Shown here: positions 29,241-30,683 of the stretch, in pieces | How the letters are laid out: the number at the start of each line of letters is the position of its first letter | How positions within the stretch are numbered: position 1 is the stretch's first letter | Assembly: GCA_963794305.1 (NCBI GenBank) | Contig: CAWCDQ010000024.1 | Span: forward strand, 43,648 to 107,647 | Origin: an uncultured Acidobacteriota bacterium | GTDB lineage: Bacteria > Acidobacteriota > Vicinamibacteria > Vicinamibacterales > CAVVIG01 | Length of the DNA: 64,000 nucleotides | Direction: 5' to 3' | The notes under the pieces: model-generated | Database searches by the model: none | What the model was told of the DNA's origin: nothing | The model's input: the letters and a program-made list of their open reading frames with translations, nothing else | Program-made: the position numbers and the translations under genes

Positions 29241-30683
29241 ATGCGCAGTGCGCTCCTCGTCAGCACGTACGAGATGGGACGGCAGCCGTTCGGGCTCGCG
29301 TCGGCCGCGGCGTGGCTGCGCGCCGGCGGCTGGACGGTGGCGTGCGTCGACGCCGCGAAGGAGAAGCTGCGAGCCGAGACGTCTGAGCGGGCCGCAGCTC
29401 ATCGCGTTTCATCTGCCGATGCACACCGCGACGCGGCTGGCCGGTCCGGTGATCGCGGCGGCACGGCGTGCGAACCCGGCGGCGCGCATCTGCGCGTTCG
29501 GTCTGTACGCGCCGCTGAACGCCGAGTGGCTGCGCGGCCTCGGCGTCGACGAGATCTTCGGCGGCGAGTTCGAGGAAGACCTGGCCGCGTGGGCAGGTCG
29601 ACGCTGGAACCGCAGAGCACGCCAGGCACGCAGAGACAAAACCATTCTCTGCGGCCTCTGCGGTACTCCGCGGTTCATGCCGGGCGTCAGCTCTGCCGCG
29701 GATTCACTTCCTCGTCCCCGATCGGACGGGCCTGCCGCCGCTGTCGAAATACGCGACGCTGCAGATGCCCGGCGGCGAGCGCCGGCTGGTCGGCTACACC
29801 GAGGCCAGCCGCGGCTGCCGGCACCTGTGCCGGCACTGTCCGGTCGTGCCGATCTACAACGGACAGTTCCGCGTCGTGCAGCCGGACGTCGTCGCTCGCC
29901 GACATCGCCGCGCAGGTCGCCGGCCGGCGCGCGGCACATCACCTTCGGCGATCCCGACTTCTTCAACGGTCCGACGCACGCGATGCGGATCGTCGACGGC
30001 GCTGCACGAAGCGCACCCGGGCGTCAGCTACGACGTCACGATCAAGGTCGAGCACCTGCTGCAGCATCGCGATCTCGTGCCGCGGCTGGCGGCGACCGGC
30101 TGCGCCTTCGTGACGAGCGCGGTCGAATCGGTCGACGACGAGGTGCTGCGGCGTGTTCGACAAGGGACACACGCGGGCCGACTTCCTCGAGGCCGTCGCG
30201 CTCTGCCGCGAATCGGGCGTCGACGCTCGTGCCGACCTTCGTCGCGTTTCACCCGTGGCTGACGCTGGACGCCTACTGCGACCTGCTCGACACGATCGAC
30301 GCGCTCGATCTGGTCGATCACGTCGCGCCGATTCAGCTCGCCATCCGTCTGCTCGTGCCGCAAGGATCGCGGCTGCTGGAGCTCGACGACATGCGCGTCC
30401 ACCTCGGCGCGTTCGACCCGGAGACGCTGACGTACCGGTGGGCGCATCCCGACGCCGCGCGTCGACGAGCTGCAGCGCGACGTCATGGCCCTGGTCGGCA
30501 CCCGCCTCACGGCGGATCGCCGGCGGTTGTTCGACGAGGTCCGCGGCGCTCGCGCACGAGCGCGCCGGCCGCGCGGTCGCGCCCGATACCCGGCCCGTTC
30601 GTGCGCGTGCGACCGTGCCGTACCTGAACGAACCCTGGTACTGTTGAGCGGAGCCCAATGCAGAGCAGGTGGCTCTGTTGTGA
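29241..30683 (+). CDS. CUAEP-tail radical SAM selenoprotein (TGA 30645-30647 read as Sec), frameshifted
   Basis: [14 protein letters not shown]; CxxxCxx[26 protein letters not shown]; tail [28 protein letters not shown]. Confidence 0.88.
29607..29676. repeat. AACCGCnGAG-family hairpin inserted in the rSAM inter-domain linker
   Basis: gaaccgcagag-cacgccagg-cacgcagaga...tctctgcggc-ctctgcggta-ctccgcggttc. Confidence 0.8.
30648..30678 (+). promoter_or_regulatory. Putative bacterial SECIS element
   Basis: Stem gcagagc/gctctgt (30660-30678) with G-containing loop aggtg, starting about 12 nt after the in-frame UGA. Confidence 0.7.

Follow-up and report, generated by a model that had tools for sequence, protein, structure and literature searches.

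An in-frame UGA very probably read as selenocysteine in a CUAEP-tail radical SAM gene of an uncultured Acidobacteriota bacterium

The window, a stretch of 64,000 nucleotides of DNA from an uncultured Acidobacteriota bacterium, contains on its forward strand a gene (29241–30683) for a radical SAM enzyme of a catalogued family, NF040546, and the TGA found in frame near the end of this gene (30645–30647) very probably encodes selenocysteine (Sec), judging from the sequence and its homologues. The complete reading favoured here, to which a probability of about 0.82 is assigned, is that the gene belongs to NF040546, that its UGA is read as Sec by means of a SECIS hairpin, that the frame breaks now interrupting it are errors of the assembly, and that the product is an ArsL-like enzyme. 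The selenoprotein status of this family is already part of its curated entry; the window gene adds one more copy to it, and to a selenoprotein specialist the finding is an ordinary one.

The end of the gene can be read directly. In the frame whose positions are multiples of three, the codons TAC CTG AAC GAA CCC TGG TAC TGT lead into the TGA at 30645–30647, on the 3' side of which follow GCG GAG CCC AAT GCA GAG CAG GTG GCT CTG TTG and a second TGA (30681–30683). The segment PWYC-TGA-AEP occupies 30633–30656, and the C-U-A-E-P motif of NF040546 is present, with the first TGA (forward strand) at the place of its U according to both the homologue alignment and the family profile. An earlier note, made from the letters of the DNA, had claimed that the frame remains open from the first TGA to the second, as indeed it does; six bases then separate the second TGA from the ATG (30690) of an ATP-grasp gene. 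This second TGA is taken as the true stop codon, on the forward strand like the gene, and the orthologues of close relatives have their stop at the same position. At the other end, the start is the ATG at 29241, which aligns with the MRSALL start of the orthologues. The CxxxCxxC motif of the radical SAM cluster (C-R-H-L-C-R-H-C, 29816–29839, forward strand) was located by three-frame translation, and its cysteines, C194, C198 and C201, are invariant in an alignment of 19 orthologues; the Pfam model Radical_SAM matches the intact orthologue of the protein. The listed open reading frame 30153–30647 is merely the last in-frame segment of the gene. The notion of a selenoprotein that standard gene callers truncate survives in so far as the UGA very probably encodes Sec, but it accounts for only part of the truncation, given that the gene is also split by about nine +1 frame steps.

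Profile pieces and orthologue alignments both place the gene in NF040546. The radical SAM family with a CUAEP or CCAEP tail that the earlier note had mentioned does exist, as the NCBIfam equivalog model NF040546.1, 'CUAEP/CCAEP-tail radical SAM (seleno)protein' (cut-off 500 bits); the gene matches it through the UGA, and ArsL is its closest characterised relative. Pieces of the window copy, lying in different frames, cover positions 2–50, 44–117, 129–296, 313–392 and 420–467 of the 468 positions of the model, with piece scores of 44, 215.6, 177.1 and 50.2 bits, and it is because of the frame breaks that the copy stays below the cut-off as one open reading frame, its best single piece reaching 215.6 bits. 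The intact orthologue of the related genome G005, which is syntenic and about 80% identical in DNA, scores 616.5 bits, and same-genus orthologues score 602–627 bits. Matches above the cut-off were obtained in 29 of 41 related genomes, and the 30 full-length matches in related genomes contain exactly one TGA in 24 cases and none in the other 6. A scan of one genome per species yielded at least 594 confirmed stretches; among the matches listed, the records are mostly titled Acidobacteriota (Vicinamibacterales, Terriglobia, 'Acidiferrales') and a few are titled otherwise.

The family has left few traces in the literature. It is named as an uncharacterised CU-motif selenoprotein in a passage of a preprint of 2022 (10.1101/2022.07.06.499078), which was also the only place where CUAEP/CCAEP was found among the full-text passages retrieved. 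No literature was found on selenoproteins, radical SAM enzymes and Acidobacteria in combination, and the main text of a 2026 review of the prokaryotic selenoproteome contains neither NF040546 nor NF040542 nor the words 'tail radical SAM', its supplements being a place where the family may be listed.

Reading a UGA as Sec calls upon a dedicated machinery, the search for which had been proposed as a check, and all of it is present in the genome: selA (517.9 bits), selB (307.8 bits) and selD (349.6 bits) score above their cut-offs, selD itself having an in-frame TGA, and a tRNA-Sec was detected at 60.1 bits and called by ARAGORN as tRNA-SeC with anticodon TCA. The homologues are equally informative as regards the codon at the UGA position. 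In 31 tails (those of 30 relatives' loci and that of the window) it is TGA in 25 and TGC in 6, while 80 public loci have TGA in 58, TGC in 18 and TGT in 2, with no motif found in the remaining 2. Among the resulting 109 tails, window included, the UGA at 30645 is aligned with TGA in 82 other homologues and with a cysteine codon in 26, which bears out the suggestion that Cys might be found at this position; the 103 unique tails comprise 78 with TGA and 25 with Cys. None of the 109 ends at WYC, as homologues of a protein that stopped there had been expected to do, and all of them go on with AEP.

Just 3' of the UGA lies a SECIS-type hairpin (30660–30678, forward strand), identified by covariation and by its agreement with the bSECIS constraints. 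Its stem, GCAGAGC/GCTCTGT, pairs 30660–30666 with 30672–30678 in seven pairs, one of them G-U, around the apical loop AGGUG (30667–30671), and it begins 12 nt past the UGA, which is where the earlier note had placed it. The bSECIS model, as set out in the Fig. 2 legend of PMC13188914, has an apical loop of 3–9 nt and an upper stem of 4–16 bp, a G in the first two loop positions that is usually followed by G or U, a distance of 16–37 nt from UGA to apical loop, and a minimum free energy (MFE) of -7.5 kcal/mol or lower. The hairpin at 30660–30678 falls within all four constraints: the loop is of 5 nt and the stem of 7 bp, 6 of them conserved; the loop reads A-G-G-U-G, with G in the second position and then G/U; the spacing between UGA and loop is 19 nt (30648–30666); and the local fold of the hairpin (25 nt) has an MFE of -10.3 kcal/mol. 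An Rfam scan of 30560–30760, with E values up to 10, returned chance-level matches alone and no SECIS family.

The relatives retain the same structure. The RNAalifold consensus of 25 of them is the short hairpin 30660–30678, which is 91.7% paired and has a covariation of 0.201 vs 0.114 in shuffled alignments, a value that none of 500 shuffles attained; when the stem partner is slid by one to three columns in these 25 relatives, pairing falls to 36–54%. With 59 sequences, compensatory changes are seen at four of the seven pairs (36 cells) and the covariation is 0.309 vs 0.149 shuffled, again with 0 of 500 shuffles as high, but these 59 were picked by their better-fitting pairing register, which inflates the percentage paired, and they are related sequences, not independent ones. 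A fairer test takes all 103 unique tails and allows either of two registers in the Sec and the Cys groups alike. Under these terms at least six of the seven pairs can form in 70 of the 78 unique Sec forms vs 1 of the 25 Cys forms, and the mean local energy is -10.5 kcal/mol in the former and -4.8 kcal/mol in the latter (Mann-Whitney p about 1e-10, ignoring relatedness). The hairpin is thus a property of the Sec forms that the Cys forms, but for that single one, do not have.

The two registers differ in loop and peptide. The first has a 5-nt loop and is found in 59 sequences, with the peptide ...EQ[VL]AL[LV]; the second has a 4-nt AGUU loop and is found in 19 sequences, mostly from records titled Acidiferrales or Terriglobia, with the peptide ...DQL[VA]P.... 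The loop begins AGGU or AGUU in 76 of the 78 Sec forms, and the shape of the RNA is constant across both registers while the peptide differs. The Cys forms have free tails, some consisting of just AEP and four residues, and this freedom indicates that in the Sec forms it is the RNA that shapes the final codons, the protein needing only EPWYC[U/C]AEP; the final six codons in these forms (EQVALL here) would appear, from these comparisons of sequence, to be shaped mainly by the SECIS RNA and not by the protein. In the mechanism proposed, the hairpin would act as a bacterial SECIS and recruit SelB carrying Sec-tRNA(Sec), the UGA would be decoded as Sec, and translation would then run for 11 more codons to the stop at 30681–30683.

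Two other explanations of this 3' end have to be weighed. Standard decoding makes UGA a stop, and if 30645–30647 were an ordinary one the protein would end ...PWYC and the hairpin, which lies just upstream of the start of the next gene and is matched by no Rfam SECIS model, might serve transcript stability, say, or translational coupling to the ATP-grasp gene. Such an explanation is highly improbable in view of the AEP that follows in frame, invariant in 109 of 109 homologue tails and plainly translated in the 26 Cys forms; moreover, the Cys forms keep the downstream ATP-grasp gene but lose the hairpin (kept in 1 of 25), the curated profile spans the UGA site, and the genome holds the full Sec machinery. 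The other explanation leaves the Sec codon in place and assigns the function to a longer stem, in which the A-E-P codons (30647–30655) are paired with 30671–30679. This stem, which excludes the short hairpin, is both the lowest-energy and the centroid fold of the window sequence taken alone (-16.9 kcal/mol, z -2.32), and several relatives fold alike. However, 24 distinct relatives provide no compensatory change for it, its covariation of 0.017 equals that of its shuffles, many cells are unpaired at four of its nine pairs, and RNAalifold prefers the short hairpin; in addition, the class with GGGGACC-AGUU-GGUCCCC keeps the short hairpin while its arm seems, by inspection, unable to pair with the A-E-P codons. 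The longer stem was rejected as a conserved element because of this absence of covariation, and there is very little likelihood that it is the functional one. The reading retained is therefore that of a Sec codon served by the short hairpin.

The gene so read is interrupted in the assembly. From the ATG at 29241 to the tail, three-frame translation follows the protein through frames 0, 1, 2, 0, 1, 2, 0, 1, 2 and 0. Eight single-base insertions lie outside the linker (29379/80, 29893–96, 29918–21, 29994–97, 30152–54, 30222/23, 30453 and 30544/45), and the ninth frame step is a net +1 within the variable linker at 29596–29694; the insertions were located by aligning the gene with three intact orthologues from the same genus (L036, L039 and G005/L041, about 78–84% DNA identity). 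Other genes of the genome are affected in a similar manner: rpoC is in five pieces in stepping frames, and in tblastn with intact G005 proteins almost all the genes of the window that are syntenic with that genome (ATP-grasp, OmpA-like, TamA, TamB, CofD-like and others) shift by +1 from one frame to the next. Over 19.5 kb aligned, the window differs from G005 by 73 one-base insertions and 23 one-base deletions. Since rpoC and nearly all the neighbouring genes are broken alike, the breaks are read as assembly errors and not as decay: by analogy with those genes, the nine or so in the radical SAM gene are most likely one-base insertion errors, and the organism, it follows, probably carries an intact gene.

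The nature of the assemblies is consistent with this. The genome has a completeness of 89.97% in only 48 contigs; relatives that likewise combine a small number of contigs with low completeness (G007, G011 and G015) also give fragmented matches, while fragmented short-read assemblies give intact genes, a pattern that fits error-prone long-read assemblies. Contigs from three DNA runs and one RNA-library run, taken from related soil and mine communities, behave like further relatives. Among the indels listed, five of the eight insertions outside the linker are absent from short-read contigs of related soil organisms, with one-base omissions at 29380, 30155, 30223/4, 30457 and 30548, and the alignments end near the remaining three sites (29892, 29922–26 and 29993–94). 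These contigs extend the comparison with relatives and do not constitute direct proof of assembly errors. The contigs of the RNA library (X15) cover parts of the gene, including 30461–30662, and are not evidence of transcription of this gene.

The contrary view, that the copy is a true pseudogene and that the gene, or perhaps the whole module of POT transporter, radical SAM enzyme and ligase, has decayed through real frameshifts, draws on the number and distribution of the breaks. There are about nine of them in 1.44 kb, and the resulting density of insertions, about 6 per kb, exceeds the figure of about 2.4 per kb for the region at 32.7–43.1 kb but does not exceed the density in the adjacent POT gene; the highest value, about 7.8 per kb, belongs to 27.0–29.2 kb. 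At least one long neighbouring frame, of 1000 amino acids (23867–26869), appears unbroken, so that errors, if such they are, would be unevenly spread; and among the sequencing runs searched for this organism none contained half the words, the best share being 0.25. Decay is nevertheless considered unlikely, for it would have to extend to the essential gene rpoC and to almost all the syntenic genes, which are broken in the same way. All eight breaks outside the linker are +1 insertions and none is a deletion, nor were substitutions noticed that create a stop; relative to the three orthologues, substitutions are by far the most frequent at codon position 3 (about 0.31 vs 0.09 and 0.07 at the others); the family-invariant motifs are all intact in the window copy; and the combination of completeness and contig number matches the pattern of G007, G011 and G015. 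The breaks are accordingly kept as assembly errors, and the assembly needs polishing before any of its genes is called broken.

Immediately downstream of the radical SAM gene, on the same strand, is a frame-broken gene of the ATP-grasp L-amino-acid-ligase type (30690–32008), delimited by tblastn with its intact G005 orthologue, which yields pieces in frames 3, 1, 2 and 3; its 3' end is uncertain, the candidates being TAA 31980–31982 and TGA 32006–32008. The first piece matches Pfam ATPgrasp_N, and the domains of the orthologue are ATP-grasp_4, LAL_C2 and ATPgrasp_N. Above its cut-off, no Pfam or NCBIfam model names the protein; its best solved relative is the L-amino acid ligase BL00235 (3VOT, E 1.5e-40), and BacD is also similar. 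BL00235 prefers methionine as its N-terminal substrate. Among 29 relatives' loci, 28 have the ligase gene directly behind the radical SAM gene, and the remaining one is cut by the end of its contig; the same order is seen in 59 of the 75 public loci that have at least 300 nt downstream. In the window the ligase gene is followed by a gene for a YggX-type protein of Fe(2+) trafficking and protection against oxidative damage (32073–32336, forward strand; Pfam Iron_traffic, 109.2 bits, and NF003817 on the orthologue); of 80 public loci, 39 have a YggX match in their flanks. On the other side, a frame-broken gene for a POT-family oligopeptide:H+ symporter (27710–29197, reverse strand, from G005 tblastn) diverges from the radical SAM gene; its orthologue matches Pfam PTR2 with 231 bits and TIGR00924 with 426.5 bits, and a symporter occupies this divergent upstream position in 18 of the 29 loci of relatives and in 18 of 80 public loci. 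Near the radical SAM locus there are no ars genes and no arsM-like methyltransferase.

Concerning the enzyme itself, the ArsL model NF040542 aligns with the intact orthologue over profile positions 2–409 of 423, everything except the tail, and gives 281.2 bits. This is below the ArsL cut-off of 450, and the tail reads WYCUAEP, not RCCLKC; with such a score and with the tail excluded from the match, the protein is to be regarded as a sister of ArsL and not as ArsL. An AlphaFold model of the G005 orthologue is confident as a whole, with a mean pLDDT of 83.5 and a pTM of 0.84, but of low confidence in the linker (residues 124–147) and over roughly the final 30 residues, from which the Cys-Sec tail is probably flexible. 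The best structural matches returned by Foldseek are AprD4 (6FD2), OxsB, TsrM and MgmA (E 4e-18 to 2e-13, TM about 0.54–0.66). The Pfam model for B12 binding, PF02310, scores 18.1 bits on the orthologue against a cut-off of 32.1, and the fold resembles those of B12-dependent enzymes as well as that of the B12-independent AprD4, which is not known to use cobalamin.

A chemistry can be proposed by homology. ArsL, a radical SAM protein of arsinothricin biosynthesis, is described as cleaving SAM to give a 3-amino-3-carboxypropyl (ACP) radical and as binding As(III) through its RCCLKC tail. The [4Fe-4S] cluster of the enzyme considered here would likewise cleave SAM, its flexible Cys-Sec tail would keep a soft heteroatom substrate in place, the reaction would yield an amino acid of the 2-amino-4-X-butanoate type, and the co-transcribed L-amino-acid ligase could join this product to another amino acid. 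The methionine preference of BL00235 would suit a product of this kind. The substrate and the product of the enzyme are, however, purely a matter of inference from ArsL. A wider proposal, tentative and held with more doubt than confidence, is that radical SAM enzyme, ligase, YggX-type protein and POT symporter form one pathway, widespread in soil Acidobacteriota, in which the Cys-Sec pair would hold a soft heteroatom, be it arsenic, antimony, selenium or a metal, for coupling with the ACP radical, and the resulting analogue of methionine or glutamate would be converted into a dipeptide. If that were true, the pathway would yield a new organo-element metabolite.

For annotation, the consequence is that the gene ought to be one selenoprotein open reading frame in which the TGA is entered as a translation exception. 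In soil Acidobacteriota the family is a common one (at least 594 matches); its Cys-Sec motif is rare, and it stands nearest to ArsL, an enzyme that forms C-As bonds. The contrast between Sec and Cys forms constitutes a clean natural experiment, in which EPWYC[U/C]AEP emerges as the part of the tail that matters. It is the chemistry of the family that is the only part of the finding with real interest.

Compared with known systems, the window gene shows no difference of substance from NF040546, to which it is homologous over the full length and with which it agrees in the CxxxCxxC motif, in the EPWYC-U-AEP tail and in where the UGA falls. Its hairpin resembles bacterial SECIS elements of the fdhF type in being a stem-loop inside the coding sequence directly 3' of the UGA, and it differs from them in being very short, in ending 2 nt before the stop codon, and in having, in other lineages, a second register with the 4-nt AGUU loop. 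With AprD4, OxsB, TsrM and MgmA, which have a cobalamin-type N-terminal domain, the fold is alike but the sequence identity is just 13–20%. Like ArsL, finally, the protein combines an N-terminal Rossmann-like domain, a radical SAM core and, at its C-terminus, a short tail rich in Cys; unlike ArsL, whose tail is RCCLKC, it ends in WYC-U-AEP, and in place of arsM or arsQ, neither of which is nearby, it is accompanied by an L-amino-acid ligase, a YggX-type protein and a POT transporter.

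Single-base insertions are pervasive throughout the assembly of the source genome, both across the whole window and in rpoC, which is divided into five frame pieces (contig C9, 280-4297). Steps of +1 in the reading frame occur in nearly all the window genes that are syntenic with G005, a genome of the same genus, and the comparison of the two over 19.5 kb gives 73 one-base insertions versus 23 one-base deletions. In the radical SAM gene (29241-30683, plus strand) the inserted bases are mostly C or G and give rise to a CpG. Every apparently "broken gene" of this genome has to be regarded as suspect. 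A segment of approximately 3.3 kb (23750-27024) is missing from the G005 locus, which is elsewhere syntenic; it contains an ORF of 1000 codons (23867-26869, minus strand) whose product combines beta-propeller repeats of the PD40 type with an amidohydrolase domain at the C-terminus, and which, in contrast to the neighbouring genes, has no apparent frame breaks.

Within the radical SAM protein, the N-terminal Rossmann-like domain is joined to the radical SAM core by a low-complexity linker (29596-29694) whose length and sequence vary even among members of the same genus, and whose counterpart in the orthologue, residues 124-147, is predicted to be disordered (pLDDT <50). Downstream, the ATP-grasp ligase gene is adjoined by a gene for a YggX-type Fe(2+)-trafficking protein (32073-32336), an arrangement that recurs in roughly half of the public loci examined (39 of 80), with the YggX-type gene on one strand or the other.

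The selD gene of the source genome (contig C3, 149792-150724) contains a single in-frame TGA, and therefore the selenophosphate synthetase is probably a selenoprotein itself. Among the homologues of the radical SAM gene, one Cys form (TGC; locus L037 of the related genome G014) has kept the EQVALV tail together with a hairpin in which all 7 bp are intact, suggesting that Sec and Cys were exchanged recently.

A second class of SECIS was observed in other lineages (public loci L073, L081, L084, L085, L097 and L098, among others), in records titled mostly Acidiferrales, Terriglobia or simply Acidobacteriota. Its hairpin carries a 4-nt AGUU loop and is shifted by one register, and these loci encode the peptide ...AEPTGDQLVPI... 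and longer C-terminal extensions, of up to at least 20 residues.
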